Below are positions 1,662 to 30,869 of a stretch of DNA of 64,000 nucleotides, piece after piece. The notes beneath the pieces are model-generated. The model saw only the letters and a program-made list of their open reading frames with translations, was not told where the DNA came from and did no database searches. Source of the stretch: Flavobacteriales bacterium. GTDB lineage: Bacteria; Bacteroidota; Bacteroidia; Flavobacteriales_F; PHOS-HE28. Location of the stretch: the NCBI GenBank assembly GCA_044226515.1, contig JBGAGX010000003.1, positions 65,561 to 129,560 on the forward strand. The letters are read 5' to 3'. Position 1 is the first letter of the stretch. Each line of letters starts with the position of its first letter. The translations under genes were made by a program, and so were the position numbers.

Positions 1662-2150
1662 ATGCCAGTTCGACGTAACGGACCGATGCTGCTGCTGGCT
1701 CTGCTGCTGGCCGCCTGCGGGGTGAAGGACCCGTGCTCCACGTTCTTCGCTCCGTATCCGGACATGGTGTCGGACCGGTTGCGGACCGAGCGCAATGCCC
1801 AGCTGATCGACGGGATGACGGCCTACCGCCAGGGCGACCATGCCACTGCTGTCGAGCATTTGAAGCTCTACGTGGAGAACCGGCGTGATGACGATGCCGC
1901 CCGGCTCTACCTCGCCTGCGCCTACCTGGCCACCGGGCGACCCTACGATGCCGAACTGCAGCTCGACTTCTTGGAGAAGAGCACCCGGCGCGGTTTTCGC
2001 GATCAGGTGGACTGGTACAATGCGCTGTGCTGGACTTGCAGTGGGCAGTACCCGCGGGCCGTGGAGCAGTGCGACCTGATCCTGGCCGCCAAGGCCCATT
2101 CCTACAAGGCCGAGGCCGCGCGCTTGAAGGAGGCGTTGCAAGGCCGATGA
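1662..2150 (+). CDS. Hypothetical lipoprotein (signal peptide + Cys; helical/TPR-like)
   Basis: ATG at 1662 gives MPVRRNGPMLLLALLLAACG lipobox-like signal; track ORF 1638 (GTG) overlaps the lepB stop. Confidence 0.5.
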   Translation: MPVRRNGPMLLLALLLAACGVKDPCSTFFAPYPDMVSDRLRTERNAQLIDGMTAYRQGDHATAVEHLKLYVENRRDDDAARLYLACAYLATGRPYDAELQLDFLEKSTRRGFRDQVDWYNALCWTCSGQYPRAVEQCDLILAAKAHSYKAEAARLKEALQGR

Positions 2151-2791
2151 GCCCCGCCGACGCCCGCATGCTGGAGGACCTGCGCACCGCGTTGCGCGGC
2201 GAGCTGCCGGGTCACGACGCGTTCCTGCATCTGAGCGGGTACAAGCGTCACGATCTGGAGGACGCGCTGCGCCAGAACCCCGCCCCGCGCGAGAGCGCGG
2301 TGCTCGCTCTGATCTACCCGCGCGAGGGCCGGTTGCACACCCTGCTGATGCGACGGCCCGAGTACGATGGCGTGCACAGCGGGCAGGTGGCCTTCCCCGG
2401 TGGTCGCCGGGAAGAGCAGGACCGCGACCTGCGCGACACCGCGCTGCGCGAGTTCCAGGAGGAGACCGGTGCCTCCACCGCCCGGTTCGACGTGCTGGGG
2501 CCGTTGAGCCGCGTGTACATCCCGCCGAGCCGATCCCTCGTTACACCGTTCGTGGCCGCGGCCCCTGCCCTGCCGCCCACCGCGCCCGATCCACGCGAAG
2601 TGGCCGCCTTGATCGAAGCACCGCTCGAAGAACTGCTGCGACCGGACGTGGTGCAGGTGCGCAGGCAGTACATCCAGGTGCTGGGGCGCGAGGCCGAGAT
2701 CCCCTACTTCGACCTGCAGGGCCAGGTGGTGTGGGGCGCCACGGCGATGATGCTCGCTGAACTACGCGAGCTCCTGCACCGGCTCCGGTAG
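2147..2791 (+). CDS. NUDIX hydrolase, CoA pyrophosphatase-like
   Basis: Nudix box FPGGRREEQDRDLRDTALREFQEETG; ATGA overlap with upstream stop; the track ORF is 5'-extended. Confidence 0.75.
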   Translation: MSPADARMLEDLRTALRGELPGHDAFLHLSGYKRHDLEDALRQNPAPRESAVLALIYPREGRLHTLLMRRPEYDGVHSGQVAFPGGRREEQDRDLRDTALREFQEETGASTARFDVLGPLSRVYIPPSRSLVTPFVAAAPALPPTAPDPREVAALIEAPLEELLRPDVVQVRRQYIQVLGREAEIPYFDLQGQVVWGATAMMLAELRELLHRLR

Positions 2792-5700
2792 GCCGAAGAG
2801 CTTGCGGAAGCGGGCGTTGGGCACCACGCCCCGGGCGTCCTCGCTGTACTCGGGCTTCAAGCGCTTCACGAAGTACATGTCGATCCGCCCCTTGTTCTTG
2901 GCCTCCACCTGCCCGCGGTGCACGCACTCGAAGTGGTCCTTCAGCAGCGCGTAGGTCGCCCCGCTCACGTTCACCTCGCCGGGCTCGCCGCTGCTCTCCA
3001 TGCGGCTGGCGGTGTTCACCGCATCGCCCCAGATGTCGTAGGCGAACTTGCGCTTGCCCACCACACCGGCCACCACGGGGCCCGTGTGCAGGCCGATGCG
3101 CAGGATCCAGGGCTCCTTGCCCTTCGCCTCGTGCTCGCGGCGCCATTGGTCCATCATCTCGCGCACCTCCAGGGCGGCCATCGCCGACTTCACGGCGTGG
3201 TGCGGATCGCTCGAGGGCACACCGCTCGCGCACATGTAACTGTCGCCGATGGTCTTGATCTTCTCGATGCCGTAGCGCCCGATGATCTCGTCGAACTTGA
3301 TGAAGCACTCATCCAGCTCGTTCACCAGCTCCTCCGGGGTCATCTTCTCCGCCGCCTTGGTGAAGCCCTTCATGTCGGTGAACATCACCGTGACCTCATC
3401 GTGGCGGCGTGCGGTGGCCTTGCCCTTGTCCTTGAGCTCCTCGCTGATCTCCTTGGGCAGGATGTTCAGGAGCAGGTCCTCGATGCGCACCTTCTGCCCT
3501 TCGATCTCCTTGCTCTGGGCCACCACCTCGGCGGTGCGCTCCTCCACCTTGCGCTCCAGGATCTGGTTGCGCAGCCTCAGCTGGCGCTCGCGGAACTTGA
3601 TGTAGCTGAACACCCCGATGACGATGGCGGCGACAACGGTCGTATAGAACCACCAGCTCTGCCACCACGGCGGCAGGATGGTGAAGCGCAGTTCGGCGGG
3701 CTTCTCGCTCCACAGCCCCGCGCGGTTCATGCTCTTCACCTTGAAGGTGTAGGTGCCCGGTGTAAGGCCGGGGTAGTAGGCCTCGGCGGCGGAGGTGTGC
3801 GACCAATCGTTCTCCAGCCCCTCGAGCATGTAGGCGTACCGGACCGCCCCGGGGTCGCTCAGGCTCACCGATCCGAAGCGGAAGCGGATGCTGCGCTCAT
3901 CGTGCGAGAGGCTCACGCCCTGCTCAACGGGGCGGTCCTCCTTCTCCTGGTTGATGTTCCATGAACGGATGGCGATGATGGGCGGCTTCACGCTCAGCTT
4001 TCCCTTCTCGGGCACCACGCGTGTGGCTCCCTTGGCCGTGCCGAACCACAGGTCGCCGTTGCGGGTGATGCATACCGCGTTGGGCTTGGCCTCCACGCCG
4101 ATGAAGCCCGATGCCCCGGTGTAGGCGAGCAGCCCTTCCTGGCCGGGCCGCCAGCTGTTGAGGCCGTTCACCGTGCCGATCCAGATGGATCCGTCGCCGT
4201 CGCGGACCAGGGAGCGCACGCCATCGGCCAGCAGACCCTCCTTCTCGGCATAGGTGGCCAGCACCTTGCCGTCCTTCATCACCAGCACGCCTTTCTTGGC
4301 CGTGCCCACCCACAGGCGGCCCTCCCCGTCCTGCACGAAGCACGTGGGGGTGAGCGTGCCTTCCACCTCCACCCTGGTGGGCTTGCCGTTGTCGAGCCGG
4401 GTGATGCCCTGCTCCTTGCTGCCGACCCAGATGGTGCCCTTGTCGTCGCGGAAGAGAGCGGACACGGCGCTCGTGGGCACGCCGTCCTCCGGTCCGTACA
4501 CCATGGGCGGGGCACCAGCGGAATAGCGACGAAGCCCCGTGATGGTGCCCACCCACAGTTCGCCCGGCTGGCCCACGCAGAGGGCGGTGACCTTGTTGCG
4601 CGGGATCAGCTGGTCCAGGTCGGGGTGCGGGATCTGCTGGAACGCCACCGGGTCGAGCTCCAGCAGGCCGCCGGTCTCGGAGCCGATCCAGATGTTGCCT
4701 ATCGCGTCCTCCACGAGGCTCCGCACGCGGCTGGTGCGCACGGTCTGCAGCGTCTTGATCATGCCCGGTCCCTGCACCTTCGGGTCCAGGATGCTCACCC
4801 CGCCATCGGTGCCGAACCACAACCGGCCGTTGCGGTCCTCCATCACGGCCCACACCTGCTGGTCCAGGAGGCCGTCCTGTTCCATGAGATTGAGGAAGCG
4901 CTCCCCCTTGAAGATGATGAGCCCGTAATCGCTGGTGGCGAGCAGCATGTTGCCCTCGCTGTCCCGCGCGATCTTGCGGATCTGCAGGCTCTCCAGACCG
5001 TTGCCGGGATGGTAATGGCGACGCACGCCATTGAGGCCGATCACGGCCGCACCCCCACCCCAGGTTCCCACCCACACCTGTCCGGCGGCATCCTCGCCGA
5101 AACACGAGACGAGGTTGCTGGGCAGGCCATTGGCGGTGCTGTAGTTCACCACCTGGCCGGTCCGATGATCCAGCACGTAAGCGCCATTGGCAAGGGTGCC
5201 GAGCCACAGCCGGCCTTCCCCGTCCTCGTAAAGGGCGTTCACCCCGAGGACGTCCTGCAGGCCGTTCCATTCCAATGAACTGAAGCGCTTGGTGGAGGCG
5301 TCCCATTTCTTCAAGGTGCCGCCATCCTCGAGGAAGGCGATGGTGCCGTCCCTGAACCGTCGCACATCGAGCAGGTGGTCGAGCAGGCCCTGGTCGCCGC
5401 TGAAGCGCTGGCAGGTGAGCGCACCATCCTCGCCAACGGCCGTTACATGCAGCGCGCCCTGGCCCATGGTGGTGACCCAGAACGTACCGTCCGCGTCCTC
5501 GATGATGCCGGTGATGTCGGCCGTGAGCGCATCGCCCTCCGGCCTCGCCACTCGGAACTCGCGACCGGAGCGAAGGCTGATGCCACCACCGGAATGCCCC
5601 ACCCAGAAGCGCTGATGGGAGTCGATCAGCAGGCAACGCGCGCCCTTGGGAGCGAGGCCGTCGGTAACGCCATAGGCATGCACGCCATCGCGCTCGCGCC

Positions 5701-5881
5701 CGTCGAAGCTCACCAGGCCGTCCTCGGTGCCCAACCACACCAGGCCCGAGCTGTCCTGCAACACGCTGTACACGTTGCTGGTGGGGAGCCCGTTCTGCAC
5801 GTCGAGCCGTTCGAAGTAGAAACGCTGGGCGTGCAGGCCAAGGACGGCCGTGCAGGCAAACAGGAGAGCGGTGAGGCGCAT
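2762..5881 (-). CDS. Periplasmic two-component-regulator-propeller + Y_Y_Y sensor fused to a class III adenylate cyclase (membrane-bound)
   Basis: Signal peptide MRLTALLFACTAVLGLHAQ, about 700 aa of beta-propeller repeats, Y_Y_Y-like region, one TM helix (WWFYTTVVAAIVIGVFSYIKF), a coiled coil, then a cyclase homology domain (FTDMKGFT ... IKTIGDSYM ... YDIWGDAVNTASRMES). Alternative ATG at 5905. Confidence 0.8.
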   Translation of the reverse strand: MRLTALLFACTAVLGLHAQRFYFERLDVQNGLPTSNVYSVLQDSSGLVWLGTEDGLVSFDGRERDGVHAYGVTDGLAPKGARCLLIDSHQRFWVGHSGGGISLRSGREFRVARPEGDALTADITGIIEDADGTFWVTTMGQGALHVTAVGEDGALTCQRFSGDQGLLDHLLDVRRFRDGTIAFLEDGGTLKKWDASTKRFSSLEWNGLQDVLGVNALYEDGEGRLWLGTLANGAYVLDHRTGQVVNYSTANGLPSNLVSCFGEDAAGQVWVGTWGGGAAVIGLNGVRRHYHPGNGLESLQIRKIARDSEGNMLLATSDYGLIIFKGERFLNLMEQDGLLDQQVWAVMEDRNGRLWFGTDGGVSILDPKVQGPGMIKTLQTVRTSRVRSLVEDAIGNIWIGSETGGLLELDPVAFQQIPHPDLDQLIPRNKVTALCVGQPGELWVGTITGLRRYSAGAPPMVYGPEDGVPTSAVSALFRDDKGTIWVGSKEQGITRLDNGKPTRVEVEGTLTPTCFVQDGEGRLWVGTAKKGVLVMKDGKVLATYAEKEGLLADGVRSLVRDGDGSIWIGTVNGLNSWRPGQEGLLAYTGASGFIGVEAKPNAVCITRNGDLWFGTAKGATRVVPEKGKLSVKPPIIAIRSWNINQEKEDRPVEQGVSLSHDERSIRFRFGSVSLSDPGAVRYAYMLEGLENDWSHTSAAEAYYPGLTPGTYTFKVKSMNRAGLWSEKPAELRFTILPPWWQSWWFYTTVVAAIVIGVFSYIKFRERQLRLRNQILERKVEERTAEVVAQSKEIEGQKVRIEDLLLNILPKEISEELKDKGKATARRHDEVTVMFTDMKGFTKAAEKMTPEELVNELDECFIKFDEIIGRYGIEKIKTIGDSYMCASGVPSSDPHHAVKSAMAALEVREMMDQWRREHEAKGKEPWILRIGLHTGPVVAGVVGKRKFAYDIWGDAVNTASRMESSGEPGEVNVSGATYALLKDHFECVHRGQVEAKNKGRIDMYFVKRLKPEYSEDARGVVPNARFRKLFGLPEPVQELA

Positions 5882-5888
5882 CGGTGGA

Positions 5889-8093
5889 TCAGCGGGTAAG
5901 GTCATAGAAGCTGGCCTCGGAACCGGCGGCGTCGCTCACCACCAGGGTGTTGCTCACACTCTCGCTGTAGTTCTGGATGAGGTTCTTCAGCGGACCGTAG
6001 TTGTAGAAGGAGTAGATGTCGTCCTTCTTGGCGTCAACGGGGATCCAGAAGCTCTTGCCGCCCACTGTGCGCCCATGCCCGGCGTACCACACGAGCACGG
6101 TGTTCACCTTGTTGGAACGCACCAGGTCGCGCAGCTCGGTGCTGAAGAACCGATCGAGCTGCTGCTTGGTGAGGTTCTTCTTGGTGATGGTCTTCTGCAC
6201 GTTGTACTTGGCGAAGGCCTTCTGCATCTTGGCCGCATCGTTGCCCTGTCCCTGCAAGGCGGGGAAGCTCTTGTAGTCGCTGTTCTCGATGAACACCACC
6301 CAGGTGACGCCCGAGCTCACCGCGGTGCCGGCGGCAGGCTTCTCCACGGGCTTCTCCACCGGCCGGGTGCCCGTACCGGCGCCATTGCCCTCCGCCGGCT
6401 TCATCACCGCCACGGCTTCGGCCTTCCGCTGCAGCTGGTACACCACGTCGGTGCCGTTGCCGAACTGGTCCTCGGCGCGCACGGTGAACCGGTCCTTGCC
6501 GGCGATCACCAGCTTCATGCTGAAGTCGGTGCGGTTGGTGTCGGGCACGTAGCTGGCCAGGATGCCATCGATGGTGATGCTGCGGATGATGCTGGCATCG
6601 CTGGCCGTTCCCTCGATGAAGAGGTCCTCCTTGCCGGCCGCCACGCTGATGATGCGGTCCCCACCGGGTGAGGGGGAGGTCACCGCCACCACCGGGGGGA
6701 CGCCCTCGCTCCGTTCCACGTGCAGGGACAGGCTTGCCTCGTTGTCGTACAGGTCGATCGCGGTGACCAGGATCTCCTTGTCGGTCGCGGTGAGGGGCAC
6801 GGCGACGAAGAACTCGGGATCGCGCTCATCCTTGGCGAAGTCCGCGTCGAGGCCGTTCACCGTGATGCGCTTCAGCTTGTTGCGGTCGCGCACGTGGCCG
6901 TTCACCTTCACCTGCGCGAGCACGGAGCTCACCTGCGCCACACCACCGCGGTGGATCGGTTCCACCACCGTGATCACCGGCGGGTCGCTCTCGCGGTTCA
7001 GTTCAAAGAGCTGCTTGTCCACGCGGTCGCGCTGTTCCTGCACCTTGCGGCGGAAGTCCGTGTCGTACGCGTCGTTGCCCTCCATGGCCTTCTTCGCCGC
7101 GTCGAGGTCGGCGATGGCGCCCTCCAGGTCCACGTTGGCCTCGCGACAATCCGCGCGCAGCAGCAGCAGCTCCACGTTCTGGGGCTGGGCGAGCAGCACC
7201 TTGTTCAGGTCGTTGATGGCGTTCTGGTGCTGCCCGAAGCCATGGTAATAGCGCGCCCGCTGCACGTACACGGCATCATCTGTGCGGCCCAGCGCGATGC
7301 ACTTGCTCACGTCGTCGATGGCCTTGCTGTAGTCCTTCTGCAGGGCGAAGGCCTTGCTGCGGGTGAAGAGCGCGTCGGTGCTGGCGGGGTTGAGCTCCAG
7401 GGCCCGGGTGCATTTCTCGATGGCCTTCTCCAAGGTGCGCATCTGCATGGTGGGGCCGCTGTACATGCGGTACAGGTCGAGCTGCACTTCGGCCAGGGCC
7501 ACGTAGGCCGGCTCGTACTGGTAGTTCCACTCGATCACCTTGTCCAGGTCGAACTCGGCGGTCTTCAGGTCGCGGGTGGCGTGGCGGGTGATGCCGTGCA
7601 GGTAGTAGGTGTCGGTGGTGCCCTTCACGGCCAGGGCGGCGTCGGCCGCGGCACTGGCCTTGTCGAGGTCGCCGATGGCGAGGGCCGCGCGCACCTTGGT
7701 CTGCAGGGCCGCCATGTTCTTCGGTTCCACACGCAAGGCCTGTTCGCACAGCTGCAGCGCCTTCGCCTGGTCGCCGAGCTCGTAGTAGGCCTTGGCGGCC
7801 TCGGCCGCGAGGGCGGCGTCCTCGGGCGCGAGCTCGGCCACACGGGCCCGGTCGGCAGCGCATTCCGCCTTCTTCCCGAGCAGGTTGTACACGTCGGCCC
7901 GCGCCTGGTAGGCCTTCTGCATCTTCGGGTCCACCTGGATCGCCAGGTTGAACTTCTCCAAGGCCTGGTCGAGCTGCTGCTCCTGTACAAGCTTCTCCCC
8001 TTCCTTGAAGAACGACTTGCCGCCTTGGGCGGTGGCTGAGCCGAGCAGCAACACGAGGCCGGCCAGGGAGAGGATGGCGCGTAGGATGGTCAT
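5889..8093 (-). CDS. Secreted TPR-repeat protein with two Ig-like beta-sandwich domains and a C-terminal caspase-like (C14/CHAT-like) domain that lacks the catalytic Cys
   Basis: Signal peptide MTILRAILSLAGLVLLLGSATAQ, multiple TPR motifs, and a C-terminal WVVFIENSDY ... VLVWYAGHG ... LVVSDAAGSEASF region matching the caspase p20 His-Gly / D-A-C-x-S-G pattern with Cys replaced by Ala. Stop at 5889-5891 lies 7 nt from the ATG at 5881 and overlaps the alternative ATG at 5905. Confidence 0.7.
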   Translation of the reverse strand: MTILRAILSLAGLVLLLGSATAQGGKSFFKEGEKLVQEQQLDQALEKFNLAIQVDPKMQKAYQARADVYNLLGKKAECAADRARVAELAPEDAALAAEAAKAYYELGDQAKALQLCEQALRVEPKNMAALQTKVRAALAIGDLDKASAAADAALAVKGTTDTYYLHGITRHATRDLKTAEFDLDKVIEWNYQYEPAYVALAEVQLDLYRMYSGPTMQMRTLEKAIEKCTRALELNPASTDALFTRSKAFALQKDYSKAIDDVSKCIALGRTDDAVYVQRARYYHGFGQHQNAINDLNKVLLAQPQNVELLLLRADCREANVDLEGAIADLDAAKKAMEGNDAYDTDFRRKVQEQRDRVDKQLFELNRESDPPVITVVEPIHRGGVAQVSSVLAQVKVNGHVRDRNKLKRITVNGLDADFAKDERDPEFFVAVPLTATDKEILVTAIDLYDNEASLSLHVERSEGVPPVVAVTSPSPGGDRIISVAAGKEDLFIEGTASDASIIRSITIDGILASYVPDTNRTDFSMKLVIAGKDRFTVRAEDQFGNGTDVVYQLQRKAEAVAVMKPAEGNGAGTGTRPVEKPVEKPAAGTAVSSGVTWVVFIENSDYKSFPALQGQGNDAAKMQKAFAKYNVQKTITKKNLTKQQLDRFFSTELRDLVRSNKVNTVLVWYAGHGRTVGGKSFWIPVDAKKDDIYSFYNYGPLKNLIQNYSESVSNTLVVSDAAGSEASFYDLTR

Positions 8094-8221
8094 GACGGGT
8101 GCGGAGCGAAAATAGGGCCAAGGGACGGACCCGTCGATCATCGATGACGGCGGTGAGGCGCCACGAAAAAGGCCGCACCGATCACGGGGATCGATGAGGC
8201 CGGTCGTTTTCGTCCGGGAGC

Positions 8222-9037
8222 TTACTCCACCGTGAACTTGTCCATCACCTGCGGGGTGACGCCGCTGCTGCTGAAGCCCCCGTCATGGAAGAGGTTCTGC
8301 ATGGTGACGTAGCGGGTGAGGTCGCTGAAGAGGGTGAGGCAGTAGCGGGCGCAATCCTCGGCGGGGGCGTTGCCCAGCGGGCTCATCTCCTGCGCGAAGC
8401 CGAAGAAGCCGCCGAAGCCCTTGATGCCGCTGCCGGCCGTGGTCATGGTGGGGCTCTGGCTCACGGTGTTCACGCGGATCTTCTTCTTCATGCCCAGGTG
8501 GTAGCCCCAGCTGCGGCCGATGCTCTCCAACAGGGCCTTGGCGTCGGCCATGTCGCCGTAGCCGGGGAACACGCGCTGTGCGGCGATGTAGCTTAGGGCC
8601 ACCACGCTGCCCCAGTCGTTGATGGCATCGGTCTTGGCCGCGGCCTGCAGCATGCGGTGGAAGCTCATGGCGCTGATGTCCAGCGTCTGCTTGTACCACT
8701 CGTAGTTGAGGTCGTCGTAGGTGCGGCCCTTGCGCACGTTGGGGCTCATGCCGATGCTGTGCAGCACGAAGTCGGCCTTGCCGCCGAAGTGCTCCATGCT
8801 GCCGGTGAAGAGCTTCTCCAGGTCGGCGTCGTTGGTGGCGTCGGCGGGGATGATGGGGGCCTTGATGGCCTCGGCCAGCTTGTTGATCTCGCCCATGCGC
8901 ATGGCCACGGGGGCGTTGGTGAGCACGATCTGGGCGCCCTCGGCGTGGGCCAGCTCGGCCACCTTCCAAGCGATGCTCTGGTCGTTCAAGGCACCGGTGA
9001 TGATGCCGCGCTTCCCCTTCAACAGTCCGTGAGCCAT
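8222..9037 (-). CDS. fabI: Enoyl-[acyl-carrier-protein] reductase (NADH), FabI
   Basis: GLLKGKRGIITGALNDQSIAW N-terminus; SDR-like FabI signature throughout; the track ORF is 5'-extended by 16 codons. Confidence 0.85.
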   Translation of the reverse strand: MAHGLLKGKRGIITGALNDQSIAWKVAELAHAEGAQIVLTNAPVAMRMGEINKLAEAIKAPIIPADATNDADLEKLFTGSMEHFGGKADFVLHSIGMSPNVRKGRTYDDLNYEWYKQTLDISAMSFHRMLQAAAKTDAINDWGSVVALSYIAAQRVFPGYGDMADAKALLESIGRSWGYHLGMKKKIRVNTVSQSPTMTTAGSGIKGFGGFFGFAQEMSPLGNAPAEDCARYCLTLFSDLTRYVTMQNLFHDGGFSSSGVTPQVMDKFTVE

Positions 9038-9109
9038 GGTTCTTCGGTTGATGGGCCGAAAATAGCCGTTCGGGCCGGGTGGCAAGGGATGAAGAACGTG
9101 CCGGAAGGC

Positions 9110-10780
9110 CTACCTCCCCTTCAGCAGCTCCCTTGCGTTCTCCAGCGCGGCCTGCGTGGTCTTGCGCCCGCTGAGCATCTGGGCCAGCACCTGCACGCGC
9201 TCATCGGCGTTCACCGGACGGATGTGGGTGGTGACGACCTCGGCCGCGTGGTCCTTGCTCACGAGCAGGTGGACGTCGGCCTTGCTGGCGATCTGGGGCA
9301 GGTGCGTGATGGCGATCACCTGGCGCTTGCGGCCCATGGCGGCCATCAGCTCGCCCACGCGGTCGGCCACCTCCCCGCTCACGCCGGTGTCGATCTCGTC
9401 GAAGACCACCGTCGGCAAGCCGAGGCTCTCGGCGCTGAGACCGATGAGGGCGAGCATCACGCGGCTCAGTTCACCACCGCTGGCCACCTTGTCCAGGGGC
9501 TCGGGCGCACGGTCCTTGTTCGCGCTGAAGAGGGCGCGTACGGCATCGATGCCATCGGGCCCCGGCTCCGTGACCTGGTGGGCGATCTCGAAGCGGGCAT
9601 GCGGCATACCCAGCTTCTTCAGTTGCACCACCACCTCTTCGCCCAGACCGGGGATGGCCTTGCGGCGCGCGGTGCTGATGCGCTCCGCGGCCGCGCGCAC
9701 ATGTTGCCGCATGGCGCTCTCCTGCCCTTCCAGCTCGCCGATGCGGCCGGCCAGGGATCCCATGCGGGTGGTGCGCCCGCGCAGGTCCTCGCGCAAGGCC
9801 AGCAGTTCGGCGGTGTCCTTGGCGCGGTGCTTCTGCTGAAGGCGTAACAGGACATCCAGGCGTTCGCGCATGCGTTCGGCCTCGCGTGGCTCGAGCGTTA
9901 CGGCGGTGGCCATGCGTTCGGCCTCATTGCCGATGTCCTTCAGCTCGATGGACACGCTCTGCAGGCGTGTGAGCAGGTCGTTGGCGGCGGCATCATGGCG
10001 GGCGGCGCGGCCGAGCTGCTGGCGCAGTGCGGCGATGGCGTTCAGCAGCCCGTCGTCGCCGCCGATCCCGAGGTCGGTGGCCTGCAGCGCCTGCTGGATC
10101 TCCTCGGCGTGCTCGGCACGCTCCAGGGCTTCCTCCAGCTCCTCCTGCTCCCCTTCCTTCAGCTGGGCCTGGTCAAGCTCATCGAGCTGAAAGGTGAGAT
10201 AGTCCAGTTCGGCGCGGCCGCGGGCCTCCGCTTCGCGCGCACGGGCCAGCTCATCGCTCACGGCCCGCCACGCCCGGAAGTCGGTGCGATAAGCGGCCAC
10301 CGCCTTGGATTGCCCTGCGGCGTGGTCCACCAGTCCCAGCTGGAAGCGCGCATCGTTCAGGAGCAGCGTGTGGTGCTGGCTGTGCACATGGATCAGCCGT
10401 TCGCCGAGCTCGCGCAGTTGTTCGAGCCGCACGGGGGTGTCGTTCACGAAGGCCCGGCTCCGACCTCCGATCCCCGGGCTTGACCCGGGATCCAATTGCC
10501 GCCGGATGATCATCGGCTCCTCGAAGGGTACCCCGGCCGCCTCGCACCACGCCTCCAGAGCGAGGCCCTTGGTGGCCACCTCCAGTTCGATGATGCAGCG
10601 TTGCTGCGGGTCGCGTGCCAGGCCTGCATCGGCCCGCTCACCCATGGCCAGCCCGAGGGCCCCGATGAGGATGCTCTTGCCGCTGCCGGTCTCCCCGGTG
10701 ATGATCGTGAGCCCATCGCCCAGGTCCAGTTCCAGGCGGTCGATGAGCAGGTAGTTGGTGATCGAAAGGCGCTTCAGCAT
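9110..10780 (-). CDS. recN: DNA repair protein RecN
   Basis: MLKRLSITNYLLIDRLELDLGDGLTIITGETGSGKSILIGAL Walker A; SMC-like coiled coil; C-terminal signature. Confidence 0.9.
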   Translation of the reverse strand: MLKRLSITNYLLIDRLELDLGDGLTIITGETGSGKSILIGALGLAMGERADAGLARDPQQRCIIELEVATKGLALEAWCEAAGVPFEEPMIIRRQLDPGSSPGIGGRSRAFVNDTPVRLEQLRELGERLIHVHSQHHTLLLNDARFQLGLVDHAAGQSKAVAAYRTDFRAWRAVSDELARAREAEARGRAELDYLTFQLDELDQAQLKEGEQEELEEALERAEHAEEIQQALQATDLGIGGDDGLLNAIAALRQQLGRAARHDAAANDLLTRLQSVSIELKDIGNEAERMATAVTLEPREAERMRERLDVLLRLQQKHRAKDTAELLALREDLRGRTTRMGSLAGRIGELEGQESAMRQHVRAAAERISTARRKAIPGLGEEVVVQLKKLGMPHARFEIAHQVTEPGPDGIDAVRALFSANKDRAPEPLDKVASGGELSRVMLALIGLSAESLGLPTVVFDEIDTGVSGEVADRVGELMAAMGRKRQVIAITHLPQIASKADVHLLVSKDHAAEVVTTHIRPVNADERVQVLAQMLSGRKTTQAALENARELLKGR

Positions 10781-10863
10781 GTCGACTTCCCCGGCAAGCC
10801 GGTCCGCGCCAAGATAGCCGCGCCGGTGGATGCCTTGAACGAAGGTCGCGCGGAACGGCGGAC

Positions 10864-11760
10864 CTAGTTCGTCTTCATCATGTTCTGGTAGCGCGCGATG
10901 TTCCCCGGGTCGATGACCTGCAGGGTGTTCATCAGCTTCACCTTGTCGCCCGGGTCGGCCGGCTTGAAGACCTCCACGATCTCGTTGCCCTTGGCGTTGA
11001 ACAGCACCTGCATGTTGTAGCTGGCGGGCTTGGCCTGGTGCACGGTCTTCATCTTCTCGATGGCCGCGGTCATGTTCTTGCGGGCGTTGGCCGGGTCGGT
11101 GGCCAGGATGTCCATGCCGTTGATGTGGTAGTTGTAGAGGAACTCCCGGATGGGCCGGAACACGGCCTGCTGCTGGTTCTCCACCAGCCAGTACCGGTTG
11201 CGGGGCTCCTCCACCGAGCGCCAGCCCGGCTCGGCAGCGTTCTGGGCGTTGCTCACGATCTGGCGGGCCACGTTGTAGAACTCCGTACCGCCCATGTTGC
11301 TGTAGGTGTCGGCATCGGCGCCCAGGATGAAGTACGCATAGAAACCGATGATGCTCGCCAGGTTGTTCGTGTACCGGTCCGGCGAGAACTCGATCTGGGT
11401 GTTCTCAAGGAACTGGAACTCCACGAAGTTGTCGAGGATGTCGTAGACCGGGCTCAGGTAGTCGGTGCCGTACACCGGACGGCTGTAGCTCACCTGGAGC
11501 GTGCCCTTGAACCGGTCGGCCGCGGGCTGTTCATTGATGGTGAGCAGGAAGTTCACCTCGATCCGCTCCACCGGCGCGAAGTTCTGGTTGGTCCACCGGC
11601 GCGTGTTCATGAGCTGGGTGATGGCGGTCTCCATGCTCTGCCAGATGCGCTTGGGCGTGCTCTGGATCTGCGGGGCGATGACCTGCACCTTGGCGTTGAA
11701 CTCCTGGGCGAACAGGGGCGACAGGCCGAGGGCGAAGAGGAGGACGAGGGACTTACGCAT
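10864..11760 (-). CDS. DUF4835-family secreted protein (conserved partner of coaBC/recN in Bacteroidota)
   Basis: Signal peptide; about 300 aa; sits between coaBC and recN as in Flavobacteriia/Cytophagia; overlaps the coaBC stop by 8 nt. Confidence 0.55.
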   Translation of the reverse strand: MRKSLVLLFALGLSPLFAQEFNAKVQVIAPQIQSTPKRIWQSMETAITQLMNTRRWTNQNFAPVERIEVNFLLTINEQPAADRFKGTLQVSYSRPVYGTDYLSPVYDILDNFVEFQFLENTQIEFSPDRYTNNLASIIGFYAYFILGADADTYSNMGGTEFYNVARQIVSNAQNAAEPGWRSVEEPRNRYWLVENQQQAVFRPIREFLYNYHINGMDILATDPANARKNMTAAIEKMKTVHQAKPASYNMQVLFNAKGNEIVEVFKPADPGDKVKLMNTLQVIDPGNIARYQNMMKTN

Positions 11761-12998: not shown

Positions 12999-13349
12999 TC
13001 ACTTGGATTCGGGGAGCGCGGGGGCACCGCCGTCCTCCGGCCGGCGCAGCACGATGCGGCCTTCCTGGAGCTCCTGGATGGCCAGGGCGCTGGGCTTGGG
13101 CATGCGCTCGTAGTGCTTGCTCAGCTCGATCTGCTCGCGGTTCTCGTAGACCTCCTCGAGGTTCTCACCGGTCACGGCGAACTCCTCCAGCTTCGCGCTC
13201 AGCTCGGTCTTCACCTCGGTGGCGATCTGGTTGGCGCGCTTGCCCAGCAGGCTCACGGTCTCATACACGTTCCCGATCTCCTTGTCCAGTTCGTTCACGT
13301 CACGGGTCACCGTGGTCTTGGCTGCGTTCATGCTGCGTTGGGTGTTCAT
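12999..13349 (-). CDS. rpoZ: DNA-directed RNA polymerase subunit omega
   Basis: 116-aa protein in the conserved bamD-rpoZ-coaBC position; omega-like core (IVLRR near the C-terminus). Confidence 0.65.
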   Translation of the reverse strand: MNTQRSMNAAKTTVTRDVNELDKEIGNVYETVSLLGKRANQIATEVKTELSAKLEEFAVTGENLEEVYENREQIELSKHYERMPKPSALAIQELQEGRIVLRRPEDGGAPALPESK

Positions 13350-14404
13350 GGCGTCGAGGCTTTCTTGGCGTTCCTGGCCGCGATCAGTTCCCGCTTCGCC
13401 TGAAGCGCGTCCGGCATACGCGGACTATCAGGGAATTGGGCCGCAAAGGTATCAAAGAAACGTAGACCGTCCTCGATGGTCACCAGCCGGTTCTCGTTCC
13501 TGCCGTCCTTGGCCAACGGCACGCTCGCCAGCAGGGCGTCGAAGAGGTATTGCTCCCGCAGCCCCTGGAGCTCCTCGCGGTAGGCCTTCACCTGGCCTAC
13601 CGACCGGCTTTCGGGGAAGGCGTCCTCGAACAGGTAGGAGCTCTCCACGGCGGTCTCGGCCCGCTTGGGCCGGCGAATGGCCACACTGCGCATGGCCAGG
13701 TCGTGCTCGGCCTGCACCACCATGAACAACGCGTCCTCCCGATGGGTCGAATTGGGCCATTTCCGCACGAAGTTCTTCAGGGCCACACTGGCGCTCTCGT
13801 AGTTGCGCAGGCGGAAGTACTGCTTGGCGTTCTCGAAGTCCTTCCGCTCCAACTTGCCCCGCAGCCCGTCGATCAGCGCGTTGCAGGTGTCGCGCCGCTC
13901 GGTGTACGGGTAGTAGGCCAGGAACAGCTGGAACTGGTCGATGGCGAGCTCGGTGTCCGTCTGGTCCAGCTCCCACTCCGGGCTGTTCTTGAAGTAGCAC
14001 ATGGCGCTGAGGAAGGTGCACTCCTCGGCGTACTGGCTCGTGGGGAAGGTCTTGGCGTAGTTCTCGAGGTAGTAACCGGCCAGGATGAAGTCCTTCATGC
14101 CGTAGATGGTCATGGCCCTCAGGTAGTTCACCCGTTCGCTTTCGGACCGCCCCCGGGTGAACACCGCGAGCTCTTCCAACAGCGGCAGCGATCGGTCGTA
14201 GTCGTTCTTCGCGAAGTACTTCTCCGCCACCCGCAGCTTGTAGGCGATCACCGTATCGGTGCTGGAGTGGGTGTACTTCATCGCCCGGTTGAACTCGCTG
14301 CAGCCCGGCAGCGCCAGGCCGCCCAGCACCAGGAGAAGCGTCCACAGGCCGAGGAGCACCACCGGAGCGGACCGTCGCAACGGCCGGCCGGCAGGGGAAC
14401 GCAT
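13346..14404 (-). CDS. bamD: Outer membrane protein assembly factor BamD (TPR lipoprotein)
   Basis: Lipoprotein signal ending LALPGCSEF; TPR-like helical repeats; conserved synteny. The track ORF 13346..15850 extends antisense over the neighbouring gene and is trimmed to the in-frame ATG at 14404. Confidence 0.7.
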   Translation of the reverse strand: MRSPAGRPLRRSAPVVLLGLWTLLLVLGGLALPGCSEFNRAMKYTHSSTDTVIAYKLRVAEKYFAKNDYDRSLPLLEELAVFTRGRSESERVNYLRAMTIYGMKDFILAGYYLENYAKTFPTSQYAEECTFLSAMCYFKNSPEWELDQTDTELAIDQFQLFLAYYPYTERRDTCNALIDGLRGKLERKDFENAKQYFRLRNYESASVALKNFVRKWPNSTHREDALFMVVQAEHDLAMRSVAIRRPKRAETAVESSYLFEDAFPESRSVGQVKAYREELQGLREQYLFDALLASVPLAKDGRNENRLVTIEDGLRFFDTFAAQFPDSPRMPDALQAKRELIAARNAKKASTP

Positions 14405-14548
14405 CGGGATCAAGGTCATTTCGGCGGGGCGCAAAGTTATCAACATCCCGCGGGGTGAAGAACGGCGGCGGTCCCGGGCCTCGTATGGGCGGTTGGTTAC
14501 CTTTGCGGCCACCTGCAAGGGAGGCCTCCTCCCGCCATTCAAGCGACC

Positions 14549-15793
14549 ATGAACGACATATTCGACAAGCTCCGCAAGGACCTGGGCCACATCGGCCGCC
14601 ACGCCAAGAACAGCCACGGCTATTTCAGCTTCCCCAAGCTCGAGGGCGAGCTCGGCGCGCACATGACCTTCCGGGGCAAGCCCGTGCTGGTGTGGAGCCT
14701 GAACAACTACCTGGGCCTGGCCAACCACCCGGAAGTGCGGAAGGTGGACGCCGAGGCAGCCGCCGCCTGGGGCATGGCCTACCCCATGGGTGCCCGCATG
14801 ATGAGCGGCCAGACCAAGTACCATGAGGAGCTCGAGGACAAGCTGAGCGAGTTCATGGGCAAGGAGGACACCTTCCTGCTCAACTACGGCTACCAAGGGT
14901 GCATGAGCGCCATTGAGGCGCTCCTCGGCCGCCATGACGTACTGGTGTACGACAGCGAGTGCCACGCCTGCATGATCGACGGCGCCCGCCTGCACATGGG
15001 CAAGCGCTTCGTGTTCCAGCACAACGACATGGCCAGCCTGGACAACATGCTGGAGAAGGCCGCCAAGGTGACCAGGGAGACCGGCGGCGGGATCATGGTG
15101 ATGACCGAGGGCGTGTTCGGCATGGCCGGCGACCAGGGCAAGCTGAAGGAGATCGTGGAGCGCAAGGCGAAATACAACTTCCGGCTGTTCGTGGACGATG
15201 CCCATGGCTTCGGCATGATGGGCAAGGATGGCCGGGGCACCGCAGACGCCCAGGGCGTAATGGACCAGGTGGACGTGTACTTCGGCACCTTCGCCAAGGC
15301 CATGGCCACCATCGGCGCCTTCGTGAGCGGGCCCGAGGACGTGATCATGTACCTGCGCTACAACATGCGCAGCCAGACCTTCGCCAAGAGCCTGCCCATG
15401 CCCATCGTCATCGGCGCCCTCAAGCGCCTGGAGATGATCCGCACGCGCCCCGAGTTCAGCGAAAAGCTCTGGACCATCACCAAGGCCCTGCAGAGCGGCC
15501 TGAAGGAGGCCGGGCTGGACATCGGTGTCACCAACAGCTGCGTGACCCCCGTGATGATGCACGGCAGCATCCCCGAGGCCACCAACGTGGTGCTCGACCT
15601 CCGCGAGAACCACGGCATCTTCTGCAGCATCGTGGTGTACCCCGTGGTGCCGAAGGACACGATCCTGCTGCGCCTCATCCCCACCGCGGTGCACACCCTG
15701 GACGATGTGCAGCGCACCATCAACAGCTTCAAGGAGGTGAAGAAGAAGCTGGAGGCCGGCGCCTACAGGGCCGAACAGGTGGCCACCATCTGA
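14549..15793 (+). CDS. PLP-dependent alpha-oxoamine synthase family enzyme (KBL / BioF / serine-palmitoyltransferase-like)
   Basis: Class-II aminotransferase fold with the conserved PLP-Lys region GTFAKAMATIGAFVSG and full-length similarity to KBL/SPT. Confidence 0.8.
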   Translation: MNDIFDKLRKDLGHIGRHAKNSHGYFSFPKLEGELGAHMTFRGKPVLVWSLNNYLGLANHPEVRKVDAEAAAAWGMAYPMGARMMSGQTKYHEELEDKLSEFMGKEDTFLLNYGYQGCMSAIEALLGRHDVLVYDSECHACMIDGARLHMGKRFVFQHNDMASLDNMLEKAAKVTRETGGGIMVMTEGVFGMAGDQGKLKEIVERKAKYNFRLFVDDAHGFGMMGKDGRGTADAQGVMDQVDVYFGTFAKAMATIGAFVSGPEDVIMYLRYNMRSQTFAKSLPMPIVIGALKRLEMIRTRPEFSEKLWTITKALQSGLKEAGLDIGVTNSCVTPVMMHGSIPEATNVVLDLRENHGIFCSIVVYPVVPKDTILLRLIPTAVHTLDDVQRTINSFKEVKKKLEAGAYRAEQVATI

Positions 15794-15812
15794 TCCCATT
15801 GAACGAGCGGAA

Positions 15813-15841
15813 AGCCCCGGTGATGAGCCGGGGCTTTTCTT
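15813..15841 (+). terminator. Intrinsic terminator after the alpha-oxoamine synthase gene
   Basis: AGCCCCGG-tgatga-GCCGGGGCT hairpin followed by TTTTCTTGT. Confidence 0.6.
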
Positions 15842-15863
15842 GTCGTCCACCTAGCTTCGGGGC

Positions 15864-30364: not shown

Positions 30365-30811
30365 TCAGTTCGCTCGTTCCGCCTCGAGGAAGCTGCGGTG
30401 CATGTCGTAGATGATGCCCAAGCTCACCATGAGCCCCCCCATGGCCTGCTCCACCATCTGCCAGAGGATGTCCACCACGATGTGCAACATCTGGTGACCG
30501 GCGAACGACATCCCGAGGATGAAGACCAACAGGTACACGATGAAACCCACGACCGCGCCCAGCAGCATGCTCATGAGCGGGAACGCCCGTTTCAGGCTGA
30601 TCCATTCATGGATCACGCACTGGTGCACCGCCACGGTCAGGCCAAGTCCGATGAGCAGGTAGACCAGCCCGCTGAGCACGAAATAGAGCGCATGCGGAAT
30701 GCGCAATTCCTGAAGGTCCGTGAGGGCGAGGCCGTGCCACACGTACGACAGCCCGTACATCACGATGGCCGAAAGCAGCCAAGGCACCAGTATCCTGCGT
30801 CTCTTCCACAT
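30365..30811 (-). CDS. Hypothetical 4-TM membrane protein (149 aa)
   Basis: In-frame ATG at MWKRRRILVPWLLSAIVMYG. The upstream 83 codons of the track ORF lie antisense to the neighbouring lipoprotein gene start and look non-coding. Confidence 0.45.
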   Translation of the reverse strand: MWKRRRILVPWLLSAIVMYGLSYVWHGLALTDLQELRIPHALYFVLSGLVYLLIGLGLTVAVHQCVIHEWISLKRAFPLMSMLLGAVVGFIVYLLVFILGMSFAGHQMLHIVVDILWQMVEQAMGGLMVSLGIIYDMHRSFLEAERAN

Positions 30812-30869
30812 GGGTCTCCCGCCGGTCTTCCCGCCTACCCCGAACGATGTGGCTAATTTACCGCCCCAC

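Follow-up and report, generated by a model that had tools for sequence, protein, structure and literature searches.

A half-length, cysteine-less caspase-like protein and a propeller-sensor adenylate cyclase are encoded as a conserved gene pair in Flavobacteriales

Two adjacent minus-strand genes in a 64,000-nt stretch of contig JBGAGX010000003.1 from a Flavobacteriales bacterium (the window, to which all positions refer) encode an exported protein ending in a caspase-derived domain (gene 1) and a membrane receptor with a cyclase output (gene 2), and the pair points to an undescribed envelope-signalling module. The leading reading, held with moderate confidence, is that a non-catalytic periplasmic co-sensor or scaffold controls a receptor cyclase, as a derived branch of a wider Bacteroidota module. 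A literature search did not find a paper describing a caspase-like/sensor-cyclase pair. The combination, for which the first-pass annotation of this DNA knew of no described system, does not stand alone: the common form of the wider module joins an intact caspase to a PP2C (SpoIIE) output.

An ORF check of the window confirmed reading frames at 5889..8141(-) and 2762..5905(-). Gene 1 occupies 5889..8093(-) (734 aa, stop codon counted in the coordinates), and its start at 8093 is backed by the N-termini of orthologs, which thereby support a signal peptide, MTILRAILSLAGLVLLLGSATA|Q. Gene 2 lies at 2762..5881(-) and encodes 1039 aa from the ATG at 5881, or 1047 aa from an alternative ATG at 5905. 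Direct reading of the junction (5879..5907, minus strand) gives ...CGC TGA tccaccg ATG, where the gene 1 stop (TGA, 5891-5889) is separated from the ATG at 5881 by a 7-nt spacer; the ATG at 5905 would give a 17-nt overlap with gene 1. The two-gene arrangement read earlier from this strand is thus borne out by both the ORFs and the junction sequence, and the genes are probably co-transcribed and translationally coupled. Terminator scanning and inspection of the intergenic region upstream of gene 1 (8094..8221, minus strand) showed, after fabI, a terminator-like hairpin and its T-run (8196-8166), and also the motif TATTTTCG at 8113-8106, which we take to be a putative promoter, resembling the Bacteroidota -7 element (consensus TAnnTTTG). 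Housekeeping genes flank the pair, and the 64-kb window yielded no gene for a cAMP receptor.

Gene 1 has more than 100 orthologs (59-87% identity) in Flavobacteriales MAGs, annotated as 'caspase family protein' or 'TPR repeat protein'. The predicted export of its product is supported by a Sec-type signal peptide (8028..8093(-), aa 1-22, MTILRAILSLAGLVLLLGSATA|QGG), which is the sole hydrophobic segment of the whole protein by hydropathy and has no lipobox Cys; the N-terminus and an A-x-[AG]-Q-[GS]-GK site are conserved among orthologs. It is followed by a TPR solenoid (7044..8027(-), approximately aa 23-350) matched by multiple Pfam TPR families (E 1e-12 to 1e-8). Of the whole protein, it is the region least conserved between the two partner clades, at 23-34% identity. 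Modelling of aa 360-734 with AlphaFold2 (mean pLDDT 82) gave a pair of beta-sandwiches followed by a disordered linker and an alpha/beta domain. Both beta-sandwiches are Ig-like: the first (6708..6977(-), aa 373-462; model strands 14-103) and the second (6426..6692(-), aa 468-556; model strands 109-197) have pLDDT of about 90 and give Foldseek matches to tandem Ig domains, and the first also to SGBP-B of B. ovatus. The Pro/Ala/Glu/Lys-rich linker (6315..6407(-), aa 563-593) has pLDDT below 50 at model residues 204-234, and its length and sequence differ between orthologs. Together, Pfam, AlphaFold2 and Foldseek bear out the proposed make-up of TPR, two Ig-like and caspase-like domains.

The C-terminal domain of gene 1 (5892..6314(-), aa 594-734) is a paracaspase-like Peptidase_C14 pseudo-enzyme that consists of the p20 part only. 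The Pfam match to Peptidase_C14 is clear (E 7e-10; 39.4 bits, with the cutoff at 21.4) but covers only profile positions 3-108 of 233, whereas positions 2-223 are matched in an intact relative (P0391). The best PDB match by phmmer is MALT1, and Foldseek places the alpha/beta domain with the MALT1 caspase domain and with caspase-1 p20 chains. The His motif, YAGHG, is present at 6072-6086, but the active-site loop SDAAGS (5919-5936) has Ala where Cys is expected, and the protein ends 9 residues past this loop (11 past the Ala). Across 43 loci the Cys-less motif, the early stop and the His are invariant; in the truncated clade the nucleophile position is Ala or Thr, with Ala in most. The first-pass annotation had described a caspase/CHAT-like fold, of which the caspase-like part stands, while CHAT was not among the Pfam families returned for gene 1 at E<=0.01. 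A competent caspase or CHAT protease was accordingly rejected, the domain being C14, Cys-less and p20-only. Without its nucleophile and the C-terminal half of its fold, the domain can have no protease activity, and its action must be through binding.

MALT1 and bacterial C14 proteins share with gene 1 the p20 fold and its motifs (YAGHG, F/W-x-P-V-D-A), and MALT1 also has a scaffold build with Ig-like domains. TPR fusions are common in bacterial C14 proteins (PMC3501461). Gene 1 differs from MALT1 and from C14 metacaspases and orthocaspases in its periplasmic export, in the missing catalytic Cys and in the missing p10-like half. The cyanobacterial pseudo-orthocaspases described to date (PMC6426788) have His/Cys changed to Tyr/Ser and keep the whole domain; relative to these, gene 1 has kept its His, changed Cys to Ala and halved the fold.

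The gene 2 product begins with a signal peptide (5825-5881, minus strand, MRLTALLFACTAVLGLHA|Q) and a periplasmic sensor (3647..5821(-)) made up of a double beta-propeller of Reg_prop repeats and a Y_Y_Y beta-sandwich (approximately 3674-3859). Pfam scores are 5.7e-57 for Reg_prop, 3.5e-16 for Y_Y_Y and 1.1e-58 for Guanylate_cyc. In phmmer, an end-to-end alignment joins the periplasmic part to the sensor of BT4663 (4a2l, E 1.6e-51), with further PDB matches to 3v9f and 3ott, and there is a sub-threshold NCBIfam match to PorZ (1e-20). A single transmembrane helix (3593..3667(-), aa 739-763, WWQSWWFYTTVVAAIVIGVFSYIKF) is the only internal hydropathy peak. These Pfam, alignment and hydropathy results uphold the earlier description of an HTCS-type propeller and Y_Y_Y module joined by one helix to a class III cyclase. 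The Reg_prop-Y_Y_Y-cyclase architecture is already annotated in public databases (e.g., in Winogradskyella aurantiaca), and a protein on a 205,798-bp NCBI contig (P0121) is 100% identical to the gene 2 product.

On the cytoplasmic side, a helical linker (3413..3592(-)) ends in a cyclase-transducer-like motif, LLLNILPKEISEEL (3434-3475), a segment that we take to be the 'transducer element'; the linker aligns with the helical segment preceding the catalytic domain in mycobacterial Cya (5o5k, 4p2f). The class III catalytic domain (2864..3412(-)) was defined by Guanylate_cyc and by alignment to AC5 and AC8, and its residues were assigned by residue-by-residue alignment to C1 and C2 of these two enzymes. 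The metal-binding Asp residues fall in MFTDMKG (3365-3385) and IKTIGDS (3239-3259), the substrate Lys in IKTIGD, and the substrate Asp, Asn and Arg in YDIWGDAVNTASRM (2999-3040), so that all six catalytic residues are in one chain. Adenylate specificity had been predicted from this Lys and from the Asp of WGDAVN. The conclusion holds, as both a Lys and an Asp are present, but the D of WGD was rejected as the specificity residue, since the substrate Asp is the D of YDIWG, aligned to 'YDIWGN' in C2 of mammalian AC5. Judged from these residues, the gene 2 product is a class IIIa adenylate cyclase that should make cAMP. Its best PDB sequence matches are AC5 (1e-56) and M. intracellulare Cya (about 2e-47). 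Receptor-type class IIIa cyclases (mycobacterial Rv1625c/Cya and the mammalian membrane ACs) have the same catalytic residues, and Cya the same helical segment ahead of the catalytic domain; however, Rv1625c/Cya and the mammalian ACs have 6-TM anchors and little extracytoplasmic mass, where gene 2 has a 720-aa periplasmic propeller and a single TM helix.

A co-occurrence survey, as the first-pass annotation had proposed, found the gene pair conserved in related genomes. Of 576 candidate loci it covered the best 80, and mixed forms that join an intact caspase to a cyclase, or a truncated one to SpoIIE, may therefore exist; all members of the pair come from uncultured genomes. Caspase-gene/sensor pairs occur in dozens of species-level genomes, mostly at a spacing of -4 to +20 nt. 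In the truncated clade the sensor follows the caspase gene at 41 of 42 GTDB species loci, and at the remaining one the contig stops 181 nt past the caspase gene; the Cys-less truncated gene is followed by a sensor-cyclase at all 35 species-level loci with enough downstream sequence. The pair is also carried by a locus with a cyclase identity of 51% (L001). Among the closest relatives, synteny extends over the whole block coaBC-DUF4835-recN-fabI-gene1-gene2-NUDIX-signal peptidases, so conservation there is by itself weak evidence, and the argument for pairing rests on distant SpoIIE-type loci.

These loci belong to a sister family (hosts include Bacteroidales, Vicingaceae and Lentimicrobium) in which an intact His/Cys caspase, with the motif DACES and a tail of about 105 aa, lies ahead of a homologous sensor whose output is SpoIIE/PP2C. 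Such a caspase is followed by a sensor at 31 of 36 informative loci, and by a sensor-SpoIIE at every one of the 24 with enough sequence. The other five (L064, L070, L073, L086, L087) have no sensor within 6.7 kb, and a caspase partner can thus exist without an adjacent sensor. Distant pairs share 30-40% protein identity and have entirely different flanking genes (ribD is upstream in L003 and L007, fabI in the window). In a neighbour-joining tree of the sensor domains, drawn without support values, the two caspase-linked groups are sisters and lie apart from other Reg_prop-cyclases, which have no caspase neighbour; a distant SpoIIE-type sensor also lacks one. From the sister relationship and the caspase-less state of other propeller-cyclases it follows that the partner tracks the periplasmic sensor, while the output domain is exchangeable. 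A neighbouring sensor subclade has a different conserved, exported upstream partner (340-380 aa) that is homologous between one cyclase-type and one SpoIIE-type locus (E 3e-26). Partnership between the TPR/caspase-like protein and the sensor, as suggested earlier, therefore gains strong indirect support: the pair is kept in different genomic contexts, and the caspase gene stays with the sensor clade when the output is a different one.

The gene 1 product, composed of the TPR solenoid, the Ig-like pair and the caspase-derived domain, would be a soluble protein of the periplasm, and gene 2 an inner-membrane receptor in which the propeller and Y_Y_Y act, via the TM helix and helical transducer, on a homodimeric cyclase. 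As a dedicated co-sensor or scaffold, the gene 1 protein may dock on the propeller domain, or alternatively may present a ligand to it; candidates are a glycan, or else a peptide or protein bound in the TPR or pseudo-active-site. By changing how the receptor dimer is arranged, docking would switch cytoplasmic cAMP synthesis. The direct contact, the direction of regulation and the ligand are inferred. In the Flavobacteriales lineage, the output would have been swapped to a cyclase and the caspase would have decayed to a p20-only pseudo-enzyme, with the pairing kept.

Parts of this scheme have parallels. In LuxP-LuxQ, TorT-TorS and ChvE-VirA, a soluble periplasmic protein, often encoded beside the sensor, binds the periplasmic domain of that sensor and controls a cytoplasmic output. 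The logic is that proposed for genes 1 and 2, but those proteins belong to unrelated families, with small-molecule binding proteins as partners and kinases as outputs. PorU, of the type IX secretion attachment complex, is related to gingipain-type (clan CD) peptidases. PorZ, which has the two-propeller and beta-domain architecture of BT4663 (PMC5121618), is a binding partner of PorU, a sortase that forms a thioester intermediate, and a glycan ligand of PorZ strengthens the binding (PMC8545088). This is a precedent for a Bacteroidota double-propeller protein contacting a peptidase, although PorZ and PorU are at the cell surface, do not signal and are not encoded as such a pair. The HTCS sensors of Bacteroides (BT4663, PDB 4a2l/4a2m; BT4673; BT3049) have the same Reg_prop double propeller and Y_Y_Y followed by a TM helix. 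The BT4663 sensor domain is dimeric, and ligand-induced closing of such a dimer would suit the gene 2 output, which must dimerise. HTCS outputs are histidine kinase/response regulator/AraC rather than a class III adenylate cyclase; unlike them, the present locus is not in a polysaccharide-utilisation locus, and a dedicated exported upstream partner gene is not a described HTCS feature.

A possible, clearly less probable reading places both products in one pathway without contact. The task of gene 1 would be to bind, sequester or chaperone some component of the envelope (a peptide, lipoprotein or glycan-decorated protein), intact-caspase relatives would cleave it, and the propeller would detect the freed ligand or product and not the gene 1 protein. 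HTCS-type propellers do bind small glycans directly (disaccharides in BT4663; PMC5121618), five partner genes stand without an adjacent sensor, and the ancestral partner, with its His/Cys dyad intact and its C14 domain complete, suggests that most of the family are genuine proteases. Were a proteolytic product the signal, however, loss of the nucleophile and half of the fold should uncouple the pair, yet pair and tight spacing are kept in every truncated-clade locus, and no other part of the protein is as well conserved as the pseudo-caspase domain.

It is improbable that gene 1 takes part in proteolysis gating the receptor, through a non-canonical nucleophile or as a decoy or regulatory subunit for a separate caspase or p10-like protein. 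Pseudo-caspases of the cFLIP type regulate caspases. The His motif and the Asp residues of GND and SDAAG show 90% or more conservation over both clades, the two Asp presumably corresponding to the S1-pocket residues D365 and D462 of MALT1, and Thr or Ser at the Cys position arose independently in some full-length relatives. Pseudo-caspases acting on active caspases are also recorded in the literature (PMC3501461). Against this, no p10-like tail was found in the window or within 7 kb on either side of the 43 related loci, the window showed no second C14 gene, and the nucleophile position, mostly Ala in the truncated clade, has no conserved Cys, Ser or Thr.

Mere inherited gene order, with unrelated functions and a short spacing due to compact genomes, is strongly disfavoured: it would account for the syntenic block of the closest relatives but not for pairs at 30-40% identity amid different flanking genes, for a partner that follows sensor phylogeny, or for the parallel pairing in the neighbouring subclade. 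The TPR-CHAT (Csx29) Craspase and Pycsar systems are alike only superficially (a TPR and caspase-fold protein; a class III-like cyclase), as the present genes are without CRISPR context or effector, are C14 and not CHAT, are exported and have a purine-specific cyclase; the weak PycC homology in PADLOC, the housekeeping flanks and the export of both sensing parts uphold the earlier view that there is no link. An anti-phage or conflict role, by Pycsar-like signalling or caspase-based abortive infection, is the least likely reading of all: caspase-like domains are common in conflict systems (PMC8195603) and the cyclase does match PycC models (best E 6e-18), but far below its general class III score (Pfam 1e-58), its Lys/Asp specify a purine substrate, an effector gene is absent, sensing is periplasmic amid housekeeping genes, and, unlike mobile defence islands, the pair holds a fixed chromosomal position across the clade.

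The two genes lie on the minus strand of a region of about 65% G+C, within long ORFs at 5889-8141 and 2762-5905. ATG 8093 is taken as the start of the upstream gene (gene 1, 734 aa) because the N-termini of its orthologs support it, and its stop codon is at 5891-5889. The junction with the downstream gene (gene 2) reads ...ACC CGC TGA tccaccg ATG CGC..., and gene 2 has two candidate starts, the ATG at 5881, which is 7 nt 3′ of the gene 1 stop, and an in-frame ATG at 5905, which would give a 17 nt overlap with gene 1. No terminator was predicted between the two genes by a terminator scan. A sigma-70 promoter scan, which does not cover Bacteroidota promoters, returned one match, inside gene 2 and at chance level. 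Housekeeping genes flank the pair on both sides: upstream are fabI, recN, a DUF4835 gene and coaBC; downstream are a NUDIX gene, which is convergent, and two signal peptidase genes. The 3′ end of the NUDIX gene (longest ORF 2027-2791, plus strand) overlaps the 3′ end of the gene 2 by 30 nt (2762-2791), and the same convergent overlap is seen at 11079-11108 of L001, a locus from a related genome. Also in L001, a DUF5723 gene (4319-5782) sits between fabI and the caspase-like gene; the DUF5723 protein of the window is encoded about 25 kb away (32467-33783, plus strand). Pattern matching alone places a T-run hairpin (8196-8166) in the gap between fabI and gene 1 (8094-8221), together with a TATTTTCG motif (8113-8106) just 13 nt from the ATG; if this motif is a Bacteroidota -7 element, the 5′ end of the gene 1 mRNA would be almost leaderless.

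The product of gene 1 is exported and has a TPR-Ig-Ig architecture, with a Cys-less, p20-only pseudo-caspase at its C-terminus. Its N-terminus is a typical Sec signal peptide (MTILRAILSLAGLVLLLGSATA, with cleavage before QGG) without a lipobox Cys. Pfam searches placed many TPR families at aa 40-360 and Peptidase_C14 at the C-terminus (E 7.2e-10; 39.4 bits against a cutoff of 21.4), the latter match covering only profile positions 3-108 of 233. CHAT (PF12770) gave no Pfam match in gene 1 at E<=0.01. In an AlphaFold2 model of aa 360-734 (34 sequences, mean pLDDT 82), two beta-sandwich domains are followed by a disordered linker and then by an alpha/beta domain, whose elements run b1-a1-b2-a2-b3-hairpin-a3-b4 up to the end of the chain. 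By Foldseek, the sandwiches of this model resemble tandem Ig domains, and the last domain resembles the MALT1 caspase domain (E 6.6e-7) and isolated caspase-1 p20 chains (TM 0.59-0.65 relative to target). MALT1 is likewise the best PDB sequence match of the caspase-like domain, with YAGHG...F-x-P-V-D-A aligned. The first-pass annotation had called this C-terminus caspase/CHAT-like; the C14 fold is borne out by Pfam and by the Foldseek matches to MALT1 and caspase-1 p20, while the CHAT assignment falls away and both the Cys and the p10 half are missing.

The catalytic His is present (YAGHG), and the G-H-G motif is kept in 10/10 aligned orthologs. At the position of the catalytic Cys, gene 1 reads SDAAGS where intact relatives read TDACES, and each of the clade's 43 loci has either Ala or Thr there; two loci with Thr (DATG) are L018 and L038. 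The protein ends 11 residues past the D-A-A triplet (9 past SDAAGS), matching the end of the model after strand 4. The p10-like strands 5-6 and helices are absent, relatives being about 105 residues longer with a Pfam coverage of 2-223 of 233. Since it is Cys-less and p20-only, the gene 1 product is predicted to be a binding module, not a protease, and from its sequence it cannot be a canonical cysteine protease. A truncated pseudogene or an assembly artefact was rejected as an explanation, because the stop position and the terminal SFY(D/E)LTR are kept in all orthologs and no part of the protein is better conserved than the pseudo-caspase domain. All 41 intact-type loci have a detectable p10-like tail; tblastn with this tail found nothing in the window or in any of 43 truncated-type loci, so separate encoding of the missing half was rejected, as was its fusion to gene 2, which begins directly with a signal peptide and Reg_prop.

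Gene 2 (2762-5881) matches Reg_prop (5.7e-57), Y_Y_Y (3.5e-16) and Guanylate_cyc (PF00211; 1.1e-58) in Pfam, the last at 198 bits against a cutoff of 21.9 and over profile positions 3-182 of 183. It starts with a short signal peptide, and a single internal TM helix spans aa 739-763. The periplasmic part (725 aa) aligns end to end with 4a2l, the structure of BT4663, the periplasmic sensor of a hybrid two-component system (HTCS) of Bacteroides, with an E value of 1.6e-51 (residues 3-722 against 31-787). Gene 2 is thus predicted to carry the features of an HTCS-type sensor: a double seven-bladed propeller plus Y_Y_Y, exported and followed by a TM helix. No HisKA/HATPase, receiver or AraC-type DNA-binding domain was found in the Pfam scan of gene 2, and because its cytoplasmic part is a cyclase, it is an HTCS-like sensor and not an HTCS. 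The cytoplasmic part opens with a helical linker that ends in LLLNILPKEISEEL.

The cyclase domain is nearest to mammalian AC5, AC8 and AC9 and to mycobacterial Cya/Rv1625c, and is for this reason assigned to class IIIa. Alignment to AC5 C1 and C2 places all six canonical cyclase residues in the one gene 2 chain. The two metal-binding Asp residues (MFTDMKG and TIGDSYM) align with those of AC5 C1; the substrate Lys in IKTIGD and Asp in YDIWG align with EKIKTIG and YDIWGN of C2, indicating ATP and not the Glu/Cys of GTP enzymes; and the transition-state Asn and Arg in VNTASRM align with NVASRM of C2. With the six residues in a single chain, gene 2 is predicted to be a homodimeric, ATP-specific cyclase. 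The fusion of propeller and Y_Y_Y through a single TM helix to a class III cyclase, as first annotated, is upheld by Pfam, the 4a2l alignment and the topology, and the proposed adenylate specificity agrees with the Lys and Asp that align with AC5 C2; the specificity Asp had been placed in WGD, which is another position, the AC5 alignment locating it in YDIWG. A 205,798-bp NCBI contig encodes a protein with 100% identity to the gene 2 product, and the nearest named relatives are without exception 'Flavobacteriales bacterium' MAGs. Database entries already annotate the Reg_prop-Y_Y_Y-cyclase architecture (JGI: 'ligand-binding sensor domain-containing protein/class 3 adenylate cyclase'). Among the approximately 40 ORFs of the window that were scanned, no cAMP receptor or phosphodiesterase was detected.

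Linkage of the two genes was hinted at by contigs apparently common to the homolog lists of gene 1 and gene 2, and one homolog pair has adjacent locus tags (JNL05_15760 and JNL05_15755). In L001, where the cyclase is 51% identical, the pair overlaps by 4 nt and the whole neighbourhood is syntenic with the window. The deciding evidence is from distant sensors (30-37% sensor identity), which carry a SpoIIE/PP2C output in place of the cyclase, and in 4/4 of those examined (L003, L007, L008 and P0188) a TPR, Ig and caspase gene of 777-801 aa is found directly upstream of the sensor, separated by 2-22 nt and surrounded by unrelated flanking genes. Over its full length, the L003 caspase protein shares 31% identity with gene 1; it has TDACES followed by about 105 extra residues, and matches Peptidase_C14 over profile positions 2-223 of 233. 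Searching exhaustively with HMMER for the Ig-caspase part gave 89 cluster representatives at E<=1e-30. In most, which are about 780 aa long, YAGHG...DAC(E/Q)(S/T) is followed by a further 102 residues or so; the truncated, Cys-less kind accounts for only a handful.

When one genome was scanned for each GTDB species, 576 contigs proved to encode a relative, and the best 80 of them were inspected by tblastn using a separate query for each domain. These fall into a Flavobacteriales clade of 42 loci (53-62% identity over the Ig-caspase region) and a second family of 38 loci (36-40% identity) labelled Bacteroidales, Vicingaceae, Flavobacteriales, 'Chlorobiota' and others. All 42 members of the clade lack the Cys (DAAG/DAAS/DAAA/DATG) and end 11 residues later. 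A sensor lies downstream in 41, the remaining contig stopping 181 nt past the gene, and the output is a cyclase in 35 of the 35 loci with enough sequence. In the second family, the 37 members that could be read (all but L057) have DACE(S/T) plus about 105 residues, a sensor is downstream in 31 of the 36 informative loci, and the output is SpoIIE in all 24 with enough sequence. In five loci of this family with an intact caspase (L064, L070, L073, L086 and L087), the 6.7 kb downstream contains no propeller sensor; the caspase gene of L086 is succeeded by ORFs of 408 aa (minus strand) and 445 aa (plus strand). In related loci, the two genes are usually spaced by -4 to +20 nt. P0246, a truncated form of greater divergence, has DAVGT and the same short tail; 3 nt after it comes a sensor that shares 38% identity with that of gene 2. 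The pair picked out in the first-pass annotation is therefore a conserved one, its adjacency being kept over distant lineages with different flanking genes.

Two acidic residues of gene 1, the D of GND and the D of SDAAG, are at least 90% conserved over both clades. We take these to be the equivalents of the MALT1 S1 residues D365 and D462, and given this match a remnant basic-residue pocket is possible. Thr or Ser in place of Cys is also found in full-length relatives with an intact tail of about 102 residues, namely P0289, P0298 and P0304 (DATET) and P0328 (DASEA); these swaps arose independently, indicating that the nucleophile was lost more than once in this family.

The pairing is not only conserved but specific to a clade of sensors. 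No caspase neighbour occurs at the Reg_prop-cyclases P0153, P0154, P0166 and P0182 (Winogradskyella aurantiaca), which show 24-29% sensor identity, and with four such loci lacking it, a caspase partner as a general trait of Reg_prop-cyclases was rejected. It is likewise absent from two SpoIIE-type sensors, P0199 and the distant P0204, so it is not a general trait of that type either. In a neighbour-joining tree of 39 sensor domains, which is rough and without support values, the caspase-linked cyclase and caspase-linked SpoIIE groups are sisters. An adjacent sensor subclade has another upstream partner, that of P0153 (381 aa, cyclase-type locus) being homologous to that of P0199 (339 aa, SpoIIE-type locus) at 30% identity (E 3e-26). 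These second partner genes (L002:6852-7997 and L090:2985-4004) have no Pfam match; their products have an N-terminal hydrophobic segment, read from the sequence as a putative signal peptide. The N-terminal part is rich in beta structure, and a long K/E-rich region resembles a coiled coil. Because the second subclade repeats the pattern with a different partner, these receptors come as a sensor-plus-periplasmic-partner chassis, the cytoplasmic output of which was exchanged at least twice. Directly downstream of the P0153 cyclase are tandem HD-domain genes (L002 11168-11761 and 11815-12420), which may be cyclic-nucleotide phosphodiesterases tied to it. In L004, from W. aurantiaca, a MASE7-cyclase (6622-7848) lies directly upstream of the Reg_prop-Y_Y_Y-cyclase (8001-11483), giving a cultured flavobacterium with two membrane cyclases in tandem.

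Both sensing parts of the pair are exported. Most likely, the gene 1 protein would act as a co-sensor or scaffold, either binding the gene 2 propeller domain or bringing a ligand to it, which would alter the geometry of the receptor dimer; the TM helix and helical linker would then pass this change on to the cyclase dimer. BT4663 is reported to be dimeric and to alternate between unbound and ligand-bound conformations (PMC5121618). PorZ, which has a BT4663-like architecture, binds the PorU sortase, and more tightly when glycan-loaded (PMC5121618, PMC8545088), offering, by analogy, a same-phylum precedent for contact between a propeller protein and a peptidase. The two genes have stayed paired although the nucleophile and half the fold are completely gone, and what is left of the domain is better conserved than the rest of the protein, which argues that the conserved function, at least in the window's lineage, would be binding rather than cleavage. 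We rate the pair as a putative accessory-protein-dependent transmembrane receptor.

An indirect link is a plausible alternative, with the partner handling the ligand and the sensor seeing only the product; this fits both the relatives with an active caspase and the five partner genes unlinked to a sensor. A residual or regulatory proteolytic role of gene 1 is unlikely for a Cys-less protein with a p20 half only. A defence role (Pycsar or anti-phage) is contradicted by the exported parts, the housekeeping context and fixed chromosomal position, the purine specificity (Lys/Asp) and the absence of an effector gene. It was rejected together with Pycsar membership, PADLOC reporting only weak PycC similarity (6e-18) and nothing for gene 1, and the neighbours being fabI, recN, NUDIX and signal peptidase genes. 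A CHAT/Craspase reading was also rejected, there being no CHAT profile match and no CRISPR context, so that the original distinction of this locus from both Craspase and Pycsar holds. Chance adjacency of the two genes is contradicted by their retention in different genomic contexts.

The components are members or derivatives of known families (HTCS-type sensor, class IIIa adenylate cyclase, C14 caspase fold). Neither a full-text search nor a 2012 survey of prokaryotic caspase homologs and operons gave a description of the pairing of gene 1 and gene 2, of a receptor-linked exported caspase homolog, or of a p20-only pseudo-caspase that retains the His; the full-text search likewise returned no description of a Reg_prop-cyclase. 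Bacterial caspase homologs are numerous and very few have a known role, and next to nothing has been established about cAMP signalling in Bacteroidota or about what non-kinase Reg_prop/Y_Y_Y receptors take as input. One testable hypothesis that the locus provides is control of a propeller receptor by a (pseudo)caspase partner. It also provides a natural experiment, as comparing the active-caspase/PP2C form with the dead half-caspase/cyclase form would tell binding apart from proteolysis. The evolutionary pattern is a clean one and opens the role of a bacterial caspase homolog to testing; most of the carriers are uncultured. Extending the accessory-protein receptor to a widespread Bacteroidota module is a tentative step that we hold to be somewhat improbable: a periplasmic caspase homolog would be the obligate partner of an HTCS-like double-propeller receptor, binding or proteolytically priming it, with interchangeable outputs (cAMP synthesis or PP2C partner-switching), the caspase being active in most lineages and a p20-only pseudo-enzyme in that of the window. 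If true, this would represent a bacterial, extracytoplasmic counterpart of paracaspase scaffolds and the first assigned signal-input role for an exported caspase-fold protein.

Several other features of the window were recorded. A cobalamin riboswitch (106 bits; 58530-58722, minus strand) is directly upstream of a 475-aa ORF (57138-58565, minus strand) and overlaps its annotated start; the ORF has a T9SS C-terminal sorting domain and no other Pfam match, and may encode a B12-regulated secreted or surface protein. The 1572-aa product of 41252-45970 (plus strand) has Calx-beta, Lamin-tail and T9SS sorting domains and represents a large T9SS cargo. An ORF of 1659 aa (51840-56819, minus strand) has high GC3 and a single TPR_2 match, with otherwise no Pfam match. 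Three more ORFs of high GC3 have essentially no Pfam match: 38390-40867 (minus strand, 825 aa), 21366-23594 (plus strand, 742 aa) and 30720-32474 (plus strand, 584 aa). The 834-aa ORF at 13346-15850 (minus strand) was rejected as a high-G+C artefact, only its 3′ part (approximately 13346-14300) being similar to BamD/YfiO; across the remainder, the plus strand encodes a class I/II aminotransferase (14549-15793; E 9.5e-33).
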